Part shown: piece by piece, positions 4,482 to 12,690 of the stretch
How the letters are laid out: every line of letters begins with the position of its first letter
How positions within the stretch are numbered: position 1 is the stretch's first letter
DNA from: Thermostichus sp. DRC_bins_24
Lineage (GTDB): Bacteria; Cyanobacteriota; Cyanobacteriia; Thermostichales; Thermostichaceae
Length of the DNA stretch: 14,045 nt
Direction: 5' to 3'
NCBI GenBank assembly: GCA_039794845.1
Contig: JAUQVK010000018.1
Location: 1-14,045 of the forward strand
The notes under the pieces: generated by a model
Told to the model about the DNA's origin: nothing
The model's database searches: none
What the model saw: the letters and a program-made list of their open reading frames with translations, nothing else
Made by a program: the position numbers and the translations under genes

Positions 4482-5036
4482 GTGCAGGCAGCAAAGGATA
4501 CATCCGATCGGGACTTGATCCAACGTTGCCTCAACGGGGATCGCCAGAGCTTTCGCCAACTCTACCGCAAATACCAGCAGTCGGTACGGAACATTCTCTA
4601 TCCCCTGTGTGGGGCCGATCTTTTGGATGATCTGGTCCAGGAGGTGTTTATTCGCGCATGGAAAGGGTTACCTCGCTTTCGCGGCTCGGCCCGGTTTTCC
4701 ACCTGGTTGTATCGCATCTGCTGGAATGTGGCCTCGGATCAACGACGACGCTATGCCCGGCAGCGATCCCAAACCCAAGACATGGTGCTCAGTTGGGATG
4801 GGGCTCACCCCGGCCCCGATGTGATGCAGTTGCACCACCAACAGGCCCTACAGCGAGGCATGGCCCAGCTCAGCCCAGAACACAGCATGGTGCTGGTTTT
4901 GCATGACCTAGAGGATTTGCCCCAGAAAGAAATCGCCCACATTTTGGGGATCCCAGTGGGAACCGTGAAATCCCGGCTGTTTCATGCCCGCGCCACCATC
5001 CGCAAACACCTAATTCAGGAGGGAATTACCCCATGA
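4482..5036 (+). CDS. ECF (group 4) sigma-70 factor, cyanobacterial SigH-like
   Basis: Region 2 DDLVQEVFIRAWKGLPRFRGSARFSTWLYRI; region 4 LPQKEIAHILGIPVGTVKSRLFHAR. The sigma / small TM protein / Spy-like gene order recalls the Synechocystis sigH locus. Confidence 0.92.
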   Translation: MQAAKDTSDRDLIQRCLNGDRQSFRQLYRKYQQSVRNILYPLCGADLLDDLVQEVFIRAWKGLPRFRGSARFSTWLYRICWNVASDQRRRYARQRSQTQDMVLSWDGAHPGPDVMQLHHQQALQRGMAQLSPEHSMVLVLHDLEDLPQKEIAHILGIPVGTVKSRLFHARATIRKHLIQEGITP

Positions 5037-5377
5037 GCGAGCACCCCAACCCCCCAGAAGAAGAGCAGCTGCGGCATTTTTTGCGCCAATATCGCCCGTT
5101 GCCCCCCGCTGCTGCCCCTGATTTGGAGGAGCGAATCCTGCGGAGCGTGGCGGTTCATCGACCCCAGAGGGGGCTGTCTTGGCGCTGGGTTGGGATCCCG
5201 ATTTTGCTGGGGGCCTTGCTGGGTTGGGGTGGCTACCAGCGTTGGCAGACACAGCTCGTGGTGCAAGACACGGAAGCCCTAGAAAACTTTTTGGTCAGCA
5301 CCTGGGGGGGCTTGCTACAGGAAGAAGGGCTGGAAGCCGAAACGTGGTGGGCGGAACTGGGCCCAGAGGGATCCTGA
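5033..5377 (+). CDS. Putative single-TM anti-sigma factor
   Basis: ATGA overlap with the sigma stop codon. N-terminal LRHFLRQYRPLPP..DLEERIL helix, one TM segment (WVGIPILLGALLGWGGY) and a short acidic C-terminus. Confidence 0.75.
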   Translation: MSEHPNPPEEEQLRHFLRQYRPLPPAAAPDLEERILRSVAVHRPQRGLSWRWVGIPILLGALLGWGGYQRWQTQLVVQDTEALENFLVSTWGGLLQEEGLEAETWWAELGPEGS

Positions 5378-5440
5378 GCGACCCGGCTGAATGCTGAATG
5401 TATGAAGTGATCGGATTGTTGAGTGTTTGCCAGGAGATCT

Positions 5441-5857
5441 ATGAAGAACCTTTTGTTGTGGATCCCAATGTTGAGTTTGAGTGTGCTTTGCTTCGGATGC
5501 GTGAGTGAACCGGCTATGAGCCAACCCAGTCGCCCGCGGGTGACAGAACTGCGCCGGGGCCGTAACCTGCGCCAGTTGAATCTCTCTGCCGAGCAATTGC
5601 GGCAACTGCAACAGATCCGCCACCGCAAACAGGAGGAATTGTTGAATCGCAACCTGGAGTTGAGGGCAGCCCGTCGTCAATTGCGGGAGTTGTTGGCTAG
5701 CGATGCGCCGGAGTCGGAAGTGGCGGCCCAATTTCAGCGGGTACAACAGCTAGCCCAAGAGGTGAATGCCAGTCGCTTTGAGGCCGTTTTGGAAATGCGC
5801 CAGGTGCTCAACCTTGAACAACGGCGACAACTGCTGCAGGCTCTTGAGGAGTTGTGA
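5441..5857 (+). CDS. Spy/CpxP-family (LTXXQ) periplasmic chaperone-like protein
   Basis: ATG 5441 with AGGAG at 5432-5436 and an N-terminal signal peptide. Two LTXXQ-like motifs (LNLSAEQ, VLNLEQRRQL) flank a Q/R/E/L-rich helical body. Confidence 0.85.
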   Translation: MKNLLLWIPMLSLSVLCFGCVSEPAMSQPSRPRVTELRRGRNLRQLNLSAEQLRQLQQIRHRKQEELLNRNLELRAARRQLRELLASDAPESEVAAQFQRVQQLAQEVNASRFEAVLEMRQVLNLEQRRQLLQALEEL

Positions 5858-5864
5858 TCAACAA

Positions 5865-6039
5865 ACAGCCCTTTATGCCCAGGGCACACCGGCGTGTTCG
5901 CCCACCATAGGGCACCGCCGGTCACGTGTAACAACTGTGGAAGTTGAGATCCACTCTCTGGAAGGATGGCCCTCTGGGCCCCACGACAGCGGGAGCAGGA
6001 AGCACAATCCCTGCTGTAGAAAACCCGTGCAAGGGCTGT
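5865..6039 (-). ncRNA. Structured ~175-nt non-coding RNA candidate; best known-family guess is 6S RNA
   Basis: Fills a convergent intergenic gap. The ends pair perfectly (ACAGCCCTT 5865-5873 / AAGGGCTGT 6031-6039) and there are several internal stems. G-U pairs in a rod-like fold weakly favour the minus strand. Length and closing stem are 6S-like, but family and strand are unverified. Confidence 0.5.
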
Positions 6040-6050
6040 ACTGAACTTTT

Positions 6051-6968
6051 TTACAGTCGATAGTGCCGATACACGTCGCTGGCAGCCCGGTGCAGCAGTG
6101 AGTGGCGATAGACAAGGCTGGTGAGATCCTTGCCATAGCCGCCGCCAATCACACAGGCGACAGGGTAGCCCTGCTTGAGACAGGTATCCAACACCTGCAT
6201 GTCCCGCCGAAACAGCCCCTGATCGCTAAGGGCCAATTTCCCCAAAAGATCCTCTTGATGGGGATCGACACCGGCATCGTAAAGCACCAGATCGGGACGC
6301 ACCTGGGTCAACAGATCTGGCAAATGGGCTGCTAAGGTTTGCAAATAGGCCTCATCTTCCAGACCTACCGGCAGGGGGATATCCAAATCACTCTCTTGTT
6401 TGGTGCCCGGAAAATTGGCCTCGCAGTGCATGGAAAAAGTGAACACCCGCGCATCGGAGCGAAAGATCCAGGCGGTGCCATCCCCTTGATGCACATCCAA
6501 ATCCACAATCAACAGCCGCTGGACCAACCCTTGGTTCAGCAGCACTTGGGCCGCAATCGCCAGATCGTTAAAGATGCAAAACCCGGAGCCATAGTTGGGA
6601 AACGCATGGTGAGTGCCTCCGGCGGTGTTACAAGCAAGGCCGTAGCGCAGGGCCAGTTGAGCCGTTAGCAAGGTCCCCCCCACCGCCCGACAGGTGCGCC
6701 GTACCAAATCTGGGCTCCAGGGCAAGCCGATGCGCCGTTGCTGTTTGGACTCTAGGGATCCCCCACAGTAGGCGTTGACATATTCAGGGGTGTGGACGGC
6801 TTCGATCCAGTCAGTGGGAGGCAGCTCCGGTTGATGCAGTTGCTCGGGGCGAATCACCCGTTCTCGCAGCAGCAGCTCTTGGAGTAGGCGAAACTTCTGC
6901 ATGGGAAAGCGATGGCCCTTGGGCAGGGGCACACTGTAGTCGGGGTGATAAACAACGGGCAAAGACAT
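6051..6968 (-). CDS. Zn-dependent histone-deacetylase-family protein (class IV/HDAC11-like deacylase)
   Basis: HRFPMQKF, GGTHHA, GFCIFND, DLDVHQGDGT, AGVD and GGGY motifs are all intact. ATG at 6968. Confidence 0.92.
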   Translation of the reverse strand: MSLPVVYHPDYSVPLPKGHRFPMQKFRLLQELLLRERVIRPEQLHQPELPPTDWIEAVHTPEYVNAYCGGSLESKQQRRIGLPWSPDLVRRTCRAVGGTLLTAQLALRYGLACNTAGGTHHAFPNYGSGFCIFNDLAIAAQVLLNQGLVQRLLIVDLDVHQGDGTAWIFRSDARVFTFSMHCEANFPGTKQESDLDIPLPVGLEDEAYLQTLAAHLPDLLTQVRPDLVLYDAGVDPHQEDLLGKLALSDQGLFRRDMQVLDTCLKQGYPVACVIGGGYGKDLTSLVYRHSLLHRAASDVYRHYRL

Positions 6969-7021
6969 CAAGGGCAGCCTGATTGACGGGTATGAGCATG
7001 GCCTATTGCAGCGTCAGTGCT

Positions 7022-7028
7022 TATGTTA
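7022..7028. promoter_or_regulatory. Possible overlapping bidirectional -10 elements between deacetylase and kinase genes
   Basis: The most AT-rich patch in the 131-bp divergent gap gives TATGTT (+, 7022-7027) and TAACAT (-, 7023-7028), both fitting TAnnnT. Confidence 0.3.
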
Positions 7029-7099
7029 TTAGAGGTAGCCTACTCTTGCCGGATCCGCTTGGGATCCCTCGCCCGTTCTCTGTACTGTCGCGATCCCCT

Positions 7100-9016
7100 A
7101 TGTTTACGTCGCCGGATCCCTTTTTGGATCGCCTCTTGGCTCAGCGCTATCGGCTCACGCATCTGCTCGGACAGGGGGGCATGGGGCGGGTGTATTTGGC
7201 GCAAGACTTGCTCTTCGGTGGGGTAGAAGTGGCGGTGAAGCTGCTCACCCATCCGGTGATGGACGAAAGCACCCGCTTGCGCTTTGAACGAGAGGCGAAG
7301 TCCTGTGCGGCGTTGGGCCAAAAAAGCCTGCACATCGTCAAGGTGAATGACTACGGCATTACCCCTGATGAGGTGCCCTTTTATGTGATGGAATACCTGA
7401 ACGGGCAAACCCTGAAAGAGATTTTAGCGGCGGGTGCCCTGCCTTTGGAGCGATTTTTTCGGCTGGCCCGCCAAATTGGTTTGGGGTTGAAGACCGCCCA
7501 TGAAGGGATCCAGATGGAAGGGCAATCGGTGCAGGTGATCCACCGCGATCTGAAACCCGCCAATGTGATCGTGGTGGCCAACGATAGCCTTGGGGAGCTG
7601 GCCAAACTGGTGGATTTTGGCATTGCCAAGCTCCTGAACACCGGCGCTTCTCTGAGCCTTACCCACGCCTATTTGGGCACACTGGCCTATTCTTCGCCGG
7701 AGCAATTGGAGGGATCCCCTTTGGATGCCCGTTCCGACATCTACAGCTTCGGGATCATGCTCTACCAGATGGTGTCGGGGGAAATGCCCCTTAAGCCCAC
7801 CACCGAGTCTTTCCCGGGTTGGTACCAAGCCCACCACAAGCGTCGCCCCATTCCCTTAGAAGACCTGGGGATGAACTTGGCTTTGCCCGCCGGCCTTTCG
7901 GACTTGATCCTCAGCTGTTTGGCCAAGGATCCCGCCGCCCGTCCGCAAGCGGTAAGCAATGTGTTGGCCGAATTAGAGTACATTCAAGCCAAAGCCGAAG
8001 GGCTGGTTGCCCCTCTGGCCTTGGTCGCCCCTGGGAGCGCCGCCTCCCACACGTTTTTTCCGCCCACCGGCCAGACTGCCTCTTCCCCACTGTCCCCGGC
8101 CACGGCAGGTACCCTGCGGCTAAAGCCCTTGACTGCCACTGCTGCGACCGAAGGCAAGGGATCCCTGTTTTGGATACGCCTGATTCCCCTGCTGGTGGGT
8201 GGATTGTTGGGGTTGGCCCTGATGAGCTGGGTGCTGGGGCCGTTTCGCCAGCGCCCCCTAGCCCCTCTCTTCTCTGGGTCTGCCCCGAGTGCGGAAGAAG
8301 ATCTAGAAGATCTACCTGTGGCGGTTGATCCCAATGCCGAACCTGCTTCTGATCCGCAGGCAGCCCCCGAACCTCTTGTTTTGGATATTGCACGGGATCC
8401 CTCACCGGAGCTAGAACCCTACACCGAACCCTACACCGGTAGTGCCCCTGGCCCCCCCGGACAGGTGTTTCGCACCTTCCCCCTTGACACCTTGCGGGAG
8501 ACGGTACGGGCCAGCCTTGGATCCCCCAGTGAGAATGGCCGCGGCTATTGGCCCAACACCGTGTACGACCTGTACCGCTTCGGCAGCGTCGATTTGGGCT
8601 TGATTTACGATGCATCCAGCCTGGTGCTGCGGCAAACGGAAGCCACCGTTGACGACAACCTACCCGGCCCCCAGGTGGAGGGATTGCTGGAGGATATGTT
8701 GCAAGCCCCCTTGCCTCCTGAACTGCAGCGAGAACTGCAAGCGGTGCGAGAACGGCGCTCCGAACGGGTGCAATTTCGCGTTGGCCCCTTGTCCGGCCTG
8801 ATCGAACGCAATGCCCAGGGCCGCGTCTATATGGCCCTCTGGGATCCCGATCTGCACAGCAGCGCTCCACCGCCCACCCCGATGCCCACCCCACCCCCAC
8901 CCGCCCCGGCTGTTCAACCCCGCCCCGCCCAAAATACCAACCCTGCGGGCAACGCTCGCCCCGGCCAAACCCTGCGGGATCACCTGCGCCGCGCACGCGA
9001 ATTGCGGGGGGATTAG
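7100..9016 (+). CDS. Membrane Hanks-type Ser/Thr protein kinase with extracytoplasmic C-terminal domain
   Basis: LGQGGMGRVY, VAVK, FEREA, IHRDLKPAN, DFG and GTLAYSSPEQ. Thr-rich juxtamembrane linker, TM at ~8165-8245, Pro/acidic linker, globular domain ~8465-8857 and Pro-rich tail. Start taken as ATG 7100 (MFTSPDPFLDR). Confidence 0.93.
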   Translation: MFTSPDPFLDRLLAQRYRLTHLLGQGGMGRVYLAQDLLFGGVEVAVKLLTHPVMDESTRLRFEREAKSCAALGQKSLHIVKVNDYGITPDEVPFYVMEYLNGQTLKEILAAGALPLERFFRLARQIGLGLKTAHEGIQMEGQSVQVIHRDLKPANVIVVANDSLGELAKLVDFGIAKLLNTGASLSLTHAYLGTLAYSSPEQLEGSPLDARSDIYSFGIMLYQMVSGEMPLKPTTESFPGWYQAHHKRRPIPLEDLGMNLALPAGLSDLILSCLAKDPAARPQAVSNVLAELEYIQAKAEGLVAPLALVAPGSAASHTFFPPTGQTASSPLSPATAGTLRLKPLTATAATEGKGSLFWIRLIPLLVGGLLGLALMSWVLGPFRQRPLAPLFSGSAPSAEEDLEDLPVAVDPNAEPASDPQAAPEPLVLDIARDPSPELEPYTEPYTGSAPGPPGQVFRTFPLDTLRETVRASLGSPSENGRGYWPNTVYDLYRFGSVDLGLIYDASSLVLRQTEATVDDNLPGPQVEGLLEDMLQAPLPPELQRELQAVRERRSERVQFRVGPLSGLIERNAQGRVYMALWDPDLHSSAPPPTPMPTPPPPAPAVQPRPAQNTNPAGNARPGQTLRDHLRRARELRGD

Positions 9017-9019
9017 GCC

Positions 9020-11359
9020 ATGTCTGCCTCCGATGACAAAAAGCCCCTCTTGGGCACTGTCACCCGCTTTTTCAAGACCCTATCTGTTTGGCGACCCTCC
9101 CCTGCCGGGGCCACCGCCCTCCTCAAACCTGCCGAAGCCCCTCCCCCCAGACGCCCGGTGCGTCTGCGCATCACCTGTCCCGGAGAAGCCCCACAGGTGT
9201 TTGTCCTGAAAGGTTCCGACATTCTCGGTCGTAGCCAGACGGTTTCCACCATTCGCATTCCGGCGGCCTCGGTTAGCCATTTGCACGCCCGCATTCGCCC
9301 TCGCCTCGATTGGCGCATTCCCCGATTGGGTTGGCGGATCCCGTTGCTGCCCTTTCTCTACTGGTTGGGTTGGAATGCCGGTCGCTACCAATTGGAAGAT
9401 CAAGACTCCACCAACGGCGTATTTCGTCTAGGGCTATTTGGGGATTCAGTGCGGGTGCGCCGGGTGATTTTACGGAATGGCCGCCGGCTCAGCCTTGGCC
9501 CACCCCGGGATCCGGAGAGCGTTTTGATTCAGGTGCTGGATCCGCCGCCGCCGCAGGTGTATTGGGTGCGCGGCTGTTTGGCGCTGGTGGTGGTTTTGGG
9601 GCTGGGGTTACGGATTTGGATTGGCCATGAGTGGAGCAAGTTCTCGGTGGAGCCCCCCCTCTTGGCAGAGCGCAGCCCTCTGGTGGTAGTGGCGGGTGAT
9701 CAACAAACCCAGTTGCGCCGTACCCAAGCAGACTACTACCGCGATTTGGGCAGTCTGGAAGCCTTTGGCCCGATTTTGCCCAAGGTGGTGGTGGCCGCGG
9801 AAGATCACCGTTTTTATTCCCACTTTGGGGTGGATCTGCTGGGCATTGGGCGAGCCTTTTGGGTGAACCTGCGCTCGGGAGAACTGCAACAGGGGGGCAG
9901 CTCCATTAGTCAACAACTGGCCCGCACGGTTTTGCGAGAGTACACGGGATCCGGTAATACCTTTGGGCGCAAGGTGCGGGAGGCGGTCGCAGCTCTTAAG
10001 CTGGAAAGACGTTACAGCAAAGATCAGATCCTCACCCTGTACCTGAACAATGTCTACCTGGGCAATGGTATTTATGGGTTTGAAACCGCCGCCCAGTTTT
10101 ATTTTGGGATCCCCAGTAGCCAACTCAGCCTCTCAGAAGCCGCGACCTTAGCAGGGATTTTGCCTGCTCCCAACGCCTTTAACCCCATCACCAATTACGA
10201 TGCGGCGGTGCGCGGTCGGGATCGGGTGTTGGATCGCCTGAGTGAGCTGAGGGTCTTTCCAGAAGAAGACATTCGTCGTGCCCGGCGCAGTCGCCTCACC
10301 CTCAACCCCAATTTGCGCTCAGAAACCTCCACGGTTGCCCCCTATTTCTACGGCACCGTTTTCGAAGAGATGCGGCAGCTTCTGGGCCAAGATCTCGCAG
10401 CCGAAGGCAATTTCATCATCGAGACCACGGTGCATTTGCCCTATCAGCGGGTTGCTGAGCAAGTCCTGGCTCAAACAGTGCGGGAGTCGGGATCCACATT
10501 TGGGTTTCGTCAGGGATCCCTGGTGAGCCTCGATAGCCGCAATGGCGAGGTACTGGCCTTGGTGGGGGGGATCGACTACAGCACCAGCCAATTTAACCGG
10601 GCGACACAGGCGCAACGTCAGCCGGGATCCACCTTCAAGGTGTTTACCTATGCCGCTGCCCTCAGTCAGGGCATTTCCCCGTCACTGGTGCTTTCTTGTG
10701 AGCCGCTCACTTGGGGTAACCTCACCTTCAATGGCTGTCGCTCCGGATCTGCTCCCATGGATCTGGCGCGCGGGCTGATCCTCTCAGAAAATGTCATTTC
10801 TCTGCGCTTGGCCCAGCAGGTGGGGTTGGATCGGGTGGTGAGTATGGCTCGGCAACTGGGCATTCAATCACCCTTGCAACCTTACCCCTCGATGGTGATC
10901 GGCACGATGGAGGTGAACCTGCTGGAGTTAACGGCAGCCTTTGCCCCTTTTGCCAACCGCGGCATTGGGTCCAAGCCCCACACGATTCGGCGCATTCTCG
11001 ATAGCAGCGATTGTGCCAGTCGCAGCGATTTTCGCACCTGCCGCGAGATTTATCCGGGGCGGGAGGATCCCCGGTCACAGCAAAGGGTACTTCCAGAATC
11101 AGTAGCCCAACAGATGACCACATTGTTGCAGGCTGTGATCAGCTCCGGCACGGGCACAGCGGCTCGGCTCGGCATTGGGGAAGCGGGCAAAACCGGCACC
11201 ACCACCGGCAATAAAGACTTACTGTTCGTGGGCTATACCCCCAATCCTGCTTTGGTAACCGGCGTTTGGCTGGGGAACGACGACTCTAGCCCAACCCGAG
11301 GGAGCAGCAGCATTGCCGCCCAAACCTGGGGAAATTATATGCGCCAGGTGATCCGATAA
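9020..11359 (+). CDS. Class A penicillin-binding protein (transglycosylase + transpeptidase) with N-terminal FHA domain
   Basis: FHA motifs ILGR, SHLH and DSTNG precede a TM helix. GT51 motifs EDHRFYSHFG, GGSSISQQLAR, RKVRE and KDQILTLYLN; transpeptidase motifs STFK, SEN and KTG. Confidence 0.93.
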   Translation: MSASDDKKPLLGTVTRFFKTLSVWRPSPAGATALLKPAEAPPPRRPVRLRITCPGEAPQVFVLKGSDILGRSQTVSTIRIPAASVSHLHARIRPRLDWRIPRLGWRIPLLPFLYWLGWNAGRYQLEDQDSTNGVFRLGLFGDSVRVRRVILRNGRRLSLGPPRDPESVLIQVLDPPPPQVYWVRGCLALVVVLGLGLRIWIGHEWSKFSVEPPLLAERSPLVVVAGDQQTQLRRTQADYYRDLGSLEAFGPILPKVVVAAEDHRFYSHFGVDLLGIGRAFWVNLRSGELQQGGSSISQQLARTVLREYTGSGNTFGRKVREAVAALKLERRYSKDQILTLYLNNVYLGNGIYGFETAAQFYFGIPSSQLSLSEAATLAGILPAPNAFNPITNYDAAVRGRDRVLDRLSELRVFPEEDIRRARRSRLTLNPNLRSETSTVAPYFYGTVFEEMRQLLGQDLAAEGNFIIETTVHLPYQRVAEQVLAQTVRESGSTFGFRQGSLVSLDSRNGEVLALVGGIDYSTSQFNRATQAQRQPGSTFKVFTYAAALSQGISPSLVLSCEPLTWGNLTFNGCRSGSAPMDLARGLILSENVISLRLAQQVGLDRVVSMARQLGIQSPLQPYPSMVIGTMEVNLLELTAAFAPFANRGIGSKPHTIRRILDSSDCASRSDFRTCREIYPGREDPRSQQRVLPESVAQQMTTLLQAVISSGTGTAARLGIGEAGKTGTTTGNKDLLFVGYTPNPALVTGVWLGNDDSSPTRGSSSIAAQTWGNYMRQVIR

Positions 11360-11368
11360 TGCAAACCT

Positions 11369-11412
11369 TTGATACAGATTGATTGATACTTGATTGATAC
11401 AGATTGATGCAG
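11369..11412. repeat. Nested short tandem repeats (TTGA / TTGATAC units)
   Basis: TTGATTGATAC twice in perfect tandem (11379-11389, 11390-11400). TTGATACAGATTGAT at 11369-11383 and 11394-11408. Confidence 0.85.
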
Positions 11413-11453
11413 CTTTTCGGGTGAAAGCGACGGGATTCGAGATACACTTCTTG

Positions 11454-11495
11454 ACTTCCCTCACCCAGAGCGGGAGAGGGGCCGGGGGTGAGGGA
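11454..11495. repeat. REP-like palindromic element / probable bidirectional 3'-end hairpin
   Basis: Perfect 10-bp inverted repeat TCCCTCACCC (11457-11466) / GGGTGAGGGA (11486-11495) enclosing GGGAGAGGGG, located between convergent genes. Confidence 0.7.
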
Positions 11496-11526
11496 GCTGT
11501 TTCAGCCTCAATTGCAATGACAATGA

Positions 11527-12690
11527 TTATTGAGAAAATCCCGTGGAGAAAGCTCCTAAAATAGAAAAATAAGCTGGTTTTGGCTGATACTCAGCATCGA
11601 ATAGGCAGGGCCACTCTAGGCGTTCTTTAAGCAACCAAGTGTCACCATCGCTAATATCCCAGAAAGTAACTCCATACTGTTGATCTTTGGGGACAATTCG
11701 GTAGTAAGCCTGAAGGATATCACGGTATTGCTTGGCTTGCCTTCGAGCCAATTCCTCAGTCAATTGAGTGAGTCCGAGTTCACCCCCTTCAGCCTCTGCG
11801 AAGTCTCGATAATTTACAGAGACATCCAATTCTGATAAATGAATACTTAATCCGGTTTTGGCTGCCTCAGACAAGGCAAATTCAAAATCGGAGATGGATC
11901 GATAAATTGTTGTATGGGCTTGAATCCCAAAACCGGAAATAGGGATCCCCTTCCTTCTCAGTGCCTGGATAAGGTTGAGCTGTGCTCTGAGTTTCTCATA
12001 ATTGCGAGATGTAAACTCCTGGCCATAATCGTTGTAGAACAACACTGCCTCAGGGTCAGCTTCGTGAGCCCAAGTAAAGCACTTGCCGACAAAGTCGATG
12101 AAGCTGTCATTATCAGGGTAGCGTTTGCGCAGCCAAGTTTCTGCTAAGGCACCCGAGTTATATTCAAATAATTCATTAAAAACATCATATCCAACCACCT
12201 TGCCTCGATAGCGACTCACAACCCTGTGGATATAGTTTTGAATGTAAGCTTCAAAAGCTTTATTTCCACCAGAAAAGTTAAGAAGATAGTCTGGAGAAAC
12301 GGCGGGTAATCCGTAGAGCAAAGCATGAGCATGGAGCGATTTTCCATGAGACAGCGCCAGCTCTACTACTTGATCTGTATTGGTGAAGTCTATACTGCCA
12401 TCTTGTCGAATGAGATGGCTCATAAAAAAATCTGTGCTTGTGAAACGATCAACTTCTCGCAGAAGGATCCTCTTGGCGTAAGAGTTGCTTTGAATTTGAT
12501 CAAGTCCAAATGCCATGCCTACCGAGGCCGGTAAAACACTGGAAAGAGACTGCATAGAAGCCGGATAAGTGGGCTGGGCTAAACTAGGAAGCTGTAAGGA
12601 AAAAGGGCTTGTTTCATCCCAACAGCCGGCCAGAGTCAAGAACAACAGCAACAATAGAATAAGTCGAGCAAGTTTAACGCCCACAGCCAC
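11527..12690 (-). CDS. Glycoside hydrolase family 10 (endo-1,4-beta-xylanase-like) lipoprotein
   Basis: Lipobox LAGC after a hydrophobic signal. YDVFNE (acid/base Glu), LFYNDY, GIQAH, IHLSELDV (nucleophile Glu), VTFWDISD and LFDAEYQPKPAY. Confidence 0.88.
   Translation of the reverse strand: MAVGVKLARLILLLLLFLTLAGCWDETSPFSLQLPSLAQPTYPASMQSLSSVLPASVGMAFGLDQIQSNSYAKRILLREVDRFTSTDFFMSHLIRQDGSIDFTNTDQVVELALSHGKSLHAHALLYGLPAVSPDYLLNFSGGNKAFEAYIQNYIHRVVSRYRGKVVGYDVFNELFEYNSGALAETWLRKRYPDNDSFIDFVGKCFTWAHEADPEAVLFYNDYGQEFTSRNYEKLRAQLNLIQALRRKGIPISGFGIQAHTTIYRSISDFEFALSEAAKTGLSIHLSELDVSVNYRDFAEAEGGELGLTQLTEELARRQAKQYRDILQAYYRIVPKDQQYGVTFWDISDGDTWLLKERLEWPCLFDAEYQPKPAYFSILGAFSTGFSQ

Follow-up and report, generated by a model that had tools for sequence, protein, structure and literature searches.

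The stretch of DNA analysed here, hereafter the window, is a contig of 14,045 nucleotides (contig C18 in our numbering) from Thermostichus sp. DRC_bins_24, a cyanobacterium of the family Thermostichaceae whose 3.5-Mb genome is assembled in 115 contigs. In this window we have identified the gene of a membrane Hanks-type Ser/Thr kinase, directly followed by the gene of a class A penicillin-binding protein (PBP) that carries a cytoplasmic FHA domain ahead of its two peptidoglycan-synthesizing domains. The two genes and their parts, as placed by Pfam, by alignment and by AlphaFold2 (AF2) models with their predicted local distance difference test (pLDDT) scores, are the following.

7100–9016, + strand: gene of the membrane Hanks-type Ser/Thr kinase, 638 residues from the ATG at 7100, with its TAG stop at 9014–9016
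7148–7954, + strand: kinase catalytic domain, residues 17–285 (Pfam PF00069, E 1.8e-37; same coordinates in a search of the own genome)
8108–8122, + strand: kinase juxtamembrane motif G337-T338-L339-R340-L341, a candidate autophosphorylation and FHA-docking site proposed from conservation
8165–8236, + strand: kinase transmembrane segment, residues ~356–379 (LFWIRLIPLLVGGLLGLALMSWVL), a hydrophobic stretch read from the sequence, after the catalytic domain
8465–8860, + strand: kinase periplasmic C-terminal domain, residues ~456–587 (AF2 model, two helix-plus-sheet repeats)
9014–9022, + strand: gene junction, TAG (9014–9016), GCC, ATG (9020–9022), a 3-nt gap on the same strand
9020–11359, + strand: gene of the FHA-bearing class A PBP, 779 residues (FHA, Transgly and Transpeptidase domains)
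9107–9127, + strand: PBP tail motif G30-A-T32-A-L-L35-K(-P), a look-alike of the kinase motif and candidate phospho-acceptor
9158–9538, + strand: cytoplasmic FHA domain, residues ~47–173 (Pfam PF00498 over residues 69–160; pLDDT >90 outside the insertion)
9296–9385, + strand: W/R-rich insertion in the FHA domain, residues ~93–122 (alignment; pLDDT 63–79)
9551–9637, + strand: PBP transmembrane helix, residues 178–206 (AF2 helix, pLDDT >90)
9713–10240, + strand: GT51 glycosyltransferase domain, residues 232–407 (Pfam PF00912, E 8.6e-57)
10514–11329, + strand: transpeptidase domain, residues 499–770 (Pfam PF00905, E 7.6e-35)

The open reading frame (ORF) of the kinase is open from a TTG at 6983, and its orthologues agree with it from MFTSPDPFL onward only, that is from the ATG at 7100; a start at 7100, as given by the original prediction, is therefore reasonable. 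The product reaches 129.6 bits against the Pkinase model PF00069 (cut-off 31.7), and K47 (of VAVK), E65, H148-R149-D150, N155, D172-F173-G174 and S199-P200-E201 are invariant across 30 relatives of the same architecture, so that the full set of catalytic motifs first read by eye is borne out and the protein can be classed, on sequence grounds, as a Hanks-type Ser/Thr kinase. No PASTA repeat was matched by Pfam in it, and with the NCBIfam PASTA-kinase model NF033483 it reaches 232 bits where 450 are required, aligning at profile positions 3–274, which correspond to the catalytic domain only. The closest homologues of the kinase bear NCBI names of Thermostichus or of hot-spring “Synechococcus sp.”. 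Outside the window’s family the nearest kinase domains, at 52–56% identity, belong to soluble kinases of ~510 residues with a different C-terminal domain.

Orthologues of the PBP were searched in 401 genomes of the phylum, and almost every genome of the class yielded one, of 745–810 residues and at 45–53% identity. For comparison, 40 loci, roughly one for each genus (L031 belonging to the window’s genus, the other 39 to 27 further families), were taken together with 20 loci of the window’s own family, and 57 full-length PBPs were aligned, leaving out one at a contig end (L073) and one with a split frame (L080). In the latter (L080:3432–5743, genome G412) the frame is split near the transmembrane segment and the tail reads KGRIRL, with Arg in the place of Thr; either the copy is decaying or the assembly is at fault. 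The window’s PBP scores 28.9 bits for FHA (cut-off 20.7), 191.9 for Transgly and 121 for Transpeptidase, and lies just below the cut-off of the NCBIfam model TIGR02074 (PBP_1a) with 488.4 bits against 508.75. Among the 57 orthologues the FHA residues G70, R71, H89, S130, N132 and G133 are invariant and S86 and T131 are conserved in at least 90%, while the catalytic residues E261/D262 of GT51, S537/K540 (SxxK), S589/N591 (SxN) and K724-T725-G726 are invariant or at least 90% conserved. Judged from these motifs the PBP is a class A bifunctional enzyme with intact glycosyltransferase and transpeptidase sites, and the cytoplasmic FHA domain (GR, SxxH, STNG) that the original prediction had placed ahead of a transmembrane helix is found there by Pfam, by conservation and in the model. 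In fact, comparison of the modelled domain with the FHA domains of Rv1747 (FHA-1), GarA, OdhI, FhaA and Slr1951 gave Foldseek TM-scores, normalised to the target, of 0.72–0.86, which confirmed the N-terminal domain, at the level of the model, as a genuine FHA fold. An addition to the earlier domain description is the insertion of ~30 residues at ~93–122, which is common to the window’s family and is absent or much shorter elsewhere in the alignment; it holds the near-repeat RLDWRIP / RLGWRIP plus a conserved LGW.

The combination of FHA, Transgly and Transpeptidase domains is present in 57/57 orthologues. The FHA-PBP fusion, already known to the original prediction as a cyanobacterial annotation, is thus pan-cyanobacterial and not peculiar to the window’s genome. 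It is not universal: two reduced genomes in the window’s genus, and three genomes in the sister family, have only the FHA-less paralogue. In the window’s genome this second class A PBP has 663 residues, lacks the FHA and lies on another contig (C101; L091, G000:C101:11000–22000), and the paralogue most similar to the window’s kinase (39% identity) is 1.4 kb away from it, with a superoxide dismutase gene in between. A second kinase-linked PBP operon was considered at this place and rejected, since the paralogue is convergent behind the superoxide dismutase gene; the proximity is treated as coincidence.

The kinase and PBP genes are separated by three nucleotides, as originally described, TAG-GCC-ATG being read at the junction, and a purine-rich run, CGGGGGGAT, lies 6–14 nt ahead of the PBP start. 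Both proteins are probably translated from one transcript. A promoter and terminator scan of 5900–11800 found no promoter-like site anywhere and nothing between the genes, and is thus uninformative. In the window’s family, 23 genomes were searched, that of the window included, and 19 of them carry both genes; in 17 of these 19 the kinase is directly upstream of the PBP on the same strand. The pair spans five genera, across which the PBPs share 54–62% identity. Its 3-nt gap is kept in all nine genomes of the window’s genus that carry the pair, and in eight genomes of the four other genera the genes are 2, 77, 80, 85, 137, 176 and 213 nt apart or, once, overlap by 23 nt. The genes that flank the pair vary between genera, and the pair itself persists. 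The joint loss of both genes in two genomes (G423, G424) was also considered as a sign of linkage and set aside, because the flanking HDAC-like gene is gone too and the co-loss, being part of a larger reduction, says little.

Two short Thr motifs further relate the two proteins. In the cytoplasmic linker of the kinase T338 and R340 are conserved in at least 90% of the 30 aligned kinases, in a region otherwise variable in length and sequence, and a T-x-x-L/I is found in 29 of the 30 at 15–25 residues before the transmembrane segment. In the N-terminal tail of the PBP a Thr stands at column 32, in a G/x-T-x-x-L context, in 17 of the 18 aligned family members vs 1 of the 39 other cyanobacteria, and L35, at +3 of this Thr, is conserved in all aligned PBPs. 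The FHA domain, like the two motifs, is on the cytoplasmic side, near the membrane. Moreover, the two motifs follow each other from genome to genome:

G410: kinase linker GTRRL, PBP tail GTRRL
G413: kinase linker GTMRL, PBP tail GTIRL
Genus g160: kinase linker GTVRL, PBP tail ET(I/V)RL

At their variable positions the motifs are more alike within than across genomes, the observed score being reached by 4 of 5040 permutations in a small test of seven hand-read motif pairs, two of them non-independent, with one pair per genus and a second for genus g157.

On these grounds we favour the reading that the kinase and the FHA-PBP constitute a family-specific phosphothreonine writer–reader module with a direct link from kinase to PBP, and we would give it an even chance of being right. 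A direct phospho-link is the simplest account because the gene pairing is tight and family-wide, the functional residues of the domains of both reader and writer are intact, the topology matches and the two related Thr motifs co-vary. How the module would work can be proposed from this conservation and co-variation, with T338 and T32 as candidate phosphosites. The kinase would first autophosphorylate Thr338 in the G-T-x-R-L of its juxtamembrane linker, and the membrane-proximal FHA of the PBP would dock on this phosphothreonine. FHA domains prefer Leu or Ile at the third position after phosphothreonine, and the Leu at +3 of the kinase motif fits. Docking would then bring the PBP tail to the kinase, which would phosphorylate the look-alike Thr32, and phosphorylated Thr32 would in turn be read by the FHA, in cis or on another PBP molecule, altering the partners, the clustering or the activity of the PBP. 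Perhaps the shared motif is a code that is read by the FHA, written by the kinase, or both, and the input signal might arrive through the BLIP-like periplasmic domain of the kinase. As to docking of the tail on the FHA within one molecule, the AF2 model gives neither support nor contrary evidence. A complex prediction with kinase residues 1–350 and PBP residues 40–185 scored 0.00, which is no answer and counts neither way.

Several observations weigh against a direct link of this kind. The kinase is directly upstream of the PBP in 0/39 genomes of the 27 other families (one of these loci, L063, with only ~0.6 kb of upstream flank), and the link is confined to the window’s family. Since all 39 of these genomes carry the FHA-PBP with no such kinase before it, the FHA predates the link and must have an older ligand. 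Profile searches found 13 Hanks kinases and 11 FHA domains in the window’s genome, so that cross-talk is possible, and the family-specific traits all lie on one branch and therefore count as one evolutionary event each. Even inside the family two genomes (G408, G418) carry both genes unlinked, on different contigs, and a genome of the window’s own genus (G420) retains a mere remnant of the kinase (residues 3–38 and 616–638), between the same HDAC-like gene and a PBP that is intact with its Thr32. To these points are added the Arg in place of Thr32 in G412, whose split PBP kept it outside the alignment, the AF2 model, in which the PBP tail is disordered and undocked on the FHA (residues 1–32 with pLDDT <50), and the dependence among the few motif pairs of the permutation test, two of which come from one genus. 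The dedicated writer–reader pair of the original prediction, which had looked to the conservation of the adjacency among relatives, thus stands in part. The adjacency holds in 17 of 19 genomes over five genera of the own family, and the Thr motifs co-vary; beyond the family border the adjacency is absent, the FHA is older than the pairing, and in G420 the kinase has gone.

An alternative is that the two genes share an operon and signal separately, as co-expressed envelope genes, the kinase acting mainly on other proteins and the FHA reading an ancestral, pan-cyanobacterial ligand of other kinases. The PBPs without a neighbouring kinase in 39/39 genomes of other families, the PBP retained in G420 after kinase loss and the many kinases and FHA domains of the genome all agree with such an arrangement. 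So does a second Thr in the PBP tail, at position 15 and with a hydrophobic residue at +3, which occurs in 34 of the 39 PBPs outside the family vs 11 of the 18 inside and hints at an older, kinase-independent regulatory site. Separate signalling leaves unexplained, though, why the PBP tail should carry a Thr motif that resembles and co-varies with the motif of the kinase linker, and why the pair survived over five genera at such PBP divergence, and we consider it possible but rather unlikely.

It could also be argued that the gene order is neutral, an ancestral rearrangement having put the kinase upstream of the PBP in this lineage, with vertical inheritance ever since and no functional link. 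The adjacency is limited to one clade, in G408 and G418 the two genes have come apart, and the upstream context elsewhere varies, the commonest being bioY-lspA-PBP on one strand (both genes at 7 loci, lspA alone at 5, bioY alone at 2). Nevertheless genes that overlap or stand 3 nt apart imply co-translation beyond mere proximity, the pair outlasts changes in its flanking genes between genera, and the two Thr motifs co-vary, all of which makes a neutral order quite unlikely in our opinion.

Some kinase was found within the flanks at 3 of the 39 loci outside the family, and the orthologue at none. The one at L059 (genome G134) is 49% identical and 4 kb from the PBP, and was rejected as an orthologue since it is of the soluble ~510-residue type with a different C-terminal domain; those at L037 and L065 were rejected as well, being 28–30% identical, downstream or convergent, and about as frequent as expected by chance. 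At L059:7998–10452 an ORF resembling an FHA-bearing adenylate/guanylate cyclase, assigned by eye, is directly followed by this soluble kinase of the widespread type, which looks like another candidate pair of a kinase and an FHA enzyme. At the G420 locus (L086:4440–4808) an insertion of ~370 nt follows kinase codon 3, beside an internal deletion of ~1.7 kb in the kinase.

The part of the kinase beyond its linker deserves separate consideration. In its hydrophobic segment G367 is nearly invariant in the alignment of 30 kinases. The periplasmic domain that follows matched no Pfam family and is confidently modelled, with pLDDT of at least 94 across model residues 12–143. Its fold matches, with VIA Z-scores of 8.9 (4ifa), 8.1 (4h0a), 7.5 (4ygt, the DUF4309 protein YjgB), 7.2 (8wj5) and 7.0 (3d4e), are borderline, as values of 7–8.9 are typical of chance-level best matches and those below 8 may reflect a mere common arrangement; the best Foldseek match has an E value of 9.6e-4 and a TM-score of 0.40. 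The matched structures comprise domains of 4ifa and 4h0a, DUF4309 of YjgB, the YdcD double-wing domain and a putative BLIP, and the predicted fold may be described, as a borderline assignment, as BLIP-like, DUF4309-like or double-wing-like. A phmmer search of 1.84 billion cluster representatives returned 155 homologues of the domain at E<=1e-3, in which it is always C-terminal; of 42 that were sampled, 22 carry Pkinase and 20 carry no Pfam domain at all. The domain defines a C-terminal family of ~130 residues for which there is no Pfam model, the non-kinase half of which consists of short proteins.

This domain brings in another way of coupling the two proteins, namely outside the membrane, with the BLIP-like ectodomain binding the periplasmic domains of the PBP or their product, in the manner of PASTA kinases with PBPs, and with the FHA in a secondary role. 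Such a coupling would suit a confidently folded ectodomain that resembles BLIP-like, DUF4309 and double-wing domains and recurs at the C-terminus of kinases, and an interaction of the extracellular domain of StkP with PBP2x has been described (PMC12077195). On the other hand, the fold matches are at the chance-level borderline just mentioned, a shared fold is no proof of a shared function, and of the sampled homologues roughly every second one lacks a kinase. We regard periplasmic coupling as very unlikely to be the main connection between the two proteins.

Among known systems, the pair is close to pknF-Rv1747 of Mycobacterium tuberculosis, an operon of two genes that encode a kinase and an ABC transporter with FHA, the acceptor Thr residues of Rv1747 lying in an unstructured linker next to the FHA (PMC3138270, PMC3908365 and PMC8339232). 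In both cases a membrane Hanks kinase is adjacent to, and co-oriented with, a membrane enzyme bearing a cytoplasmic FHA, and the candidate acceptor T32, here proposed from sequence, is likewise in a disordered segment beside the FHA; one of the best structural matches to the window’s FHA is Rv1747 FHA-1 (6ccd). Unlike in pknF-Rv1747, the window’s enzyme is a bifunctional peptidoglycan synthase and not a transporter, its single FHA domain has a W-rich insertion, its kinase has a BLIP-like periplasmic domain, and phosphorylation is a proposal. A second parallel is the PknB-FhaA(-MviN) axis, where FhaA docks on the juxtamembrane domain of PknB when this domain is phosphorylated (PMC12077195). In the window, too, an FHA would read a Ser/Thr kinase signal to the wall-synthesis machinery, and the FHA structure of FhaA (3oun) is a fold match of the window’s FHA. 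Unlike in Actinobacteria, where the adaptor is separate within the fhaA-fhaB-pstP-rodA-pbpA-pknA-pknB cluster, the FHA is here fused to the synthase; the kinase, unlike PknB, has no PASTA repeats, and no phosphatase, SEDS protein or class B PBP was annotated among the genes of the window.

A third parallel is found in FHA proteins that recognise themselves. GarA and OdhI are switched by such self-recognition, and in these proteins and in DgcB of Bdellovibrio, as in the window’s PBP, a Thr in the N-terminal tail is upstream of the FHA in the same polypeptide, which would permit binding of the phosphothreonine to the FHA in cis or in trans. The FHA structures of GarA, OdhI and DgcB are fold matches of the window’s FHA, and for DgcB the titles of PDB entries 6hc0 and 6hc1 name the FHA with a phosphorylated N-terminal peptide. 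The window’s PBP differs from a GarA/OdhI-type switch in that no more than 15 residues lie between its tail and the first FHA strand, and in that AF2 leaves the tail undocked. Finally, within cyanobacteria the window’s PBP is an orthologue of the widespread FHA-PBPs, with the same three Pfam domains and invariant FHA residues, to which the copies of its family add the tail Thr32, the W/R-rich insertion and the upstream kinase. Kinase–FHA control of wall synthesis and operons of kinases with FHA enzymes are thus already known. What appears new here is a class A PBP with a fused FHA for which a candidate kinase and a shared motif can be named; no paper on the cyanobacterial FHA-PBP or its kinase was found in full-text literature searches, subscription journals being outside their coverage.

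A further observation concerns marine picocyanobacteria, of which five were examined (L092–L096 from G304, G224, G382, G270 and G354). The FHA-PBP is the sole FHA protein in three of the five genomes. The best Hanks-like match in each is a membrane protein of ~680 residues with VALR for VAIK and HGD for HRD, possibly a pseudokinase to judge by these motifs, which has a conserved R-T-V-x-L motif in the linker before its transmembrane segment.

The remaining genes of the window are, by annotation, unrelated to the kinase and the PBP:

In the window: genes of ABC permeases, MsrA and a DUF4434 protein
In the window: ECF sigma factor gene with a gene of an LTXXQ protein
Directly upstream of the kinase, divergent: HDAC-like gene
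Downstream of the PBP, on the other strand: GH10 gene and hybrid histidine kinase gene

Of these, the ECF sigma factor, a 114-residue ORF that belongs to no family and the LTXXQ/Metal_resist protein follow in a row on the + strand at 4482–5857 and are likely an envelope-stress unit, in which the small ORF possibly encodes an anti-sigma factor. The palindromic octamer GGGATCCC occurs at 18 sites in the window (among them 469, 7061, 7711, 8158, 8394, 8841 and 10106), with 0.57 expected from shuffles. It belongs with the highly iterated palindromes of the HIP1 kind, which we take to be tied to the window’s lineage.

A wider view of the favoured module can be entertained, in which Ser/Thr signalling to wall growth would have its main output in the FHA-PBP throughout cyanobacteria and the window’s family would have the most compact version of this circuit, the BLIP-like domain of the kinase monitoring the PBP or its product outside and a phosphothreonine–FHA clamp at the G-T-x-R-L code acting inside. 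The pair would then be a self-contained sensor–effector loop for peptidoglycan synthesis, and the same logic may operate in marine picocyanobacteria. This wider view is a long shot, and we hold it to be improbable.

To our knowledge, how class A PBPs are activated and positioned is an open question. The regulators known for them are outer-membrane lipoproteins in Proteobacteria and, in Gram-positives, phospho-adaptors of which FhaA and MacP are examples. In the window’s family the phospho-reader is part of the synthase itself, and a candidate cognate kinase and two candidate phosphosites (T338 and T32) can be named from the sequence, by which a direct kinase-to-synthase switch becomes testable with a few peptides and point mutants. 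The pair also points to a trait, so far unstudied, that nearly all cyanobacteria share: one of their two class A PBPs bears an FHA. This may have a bearing on the peptidoglycan-dependent division of the plastids derived from cyanobacteria.

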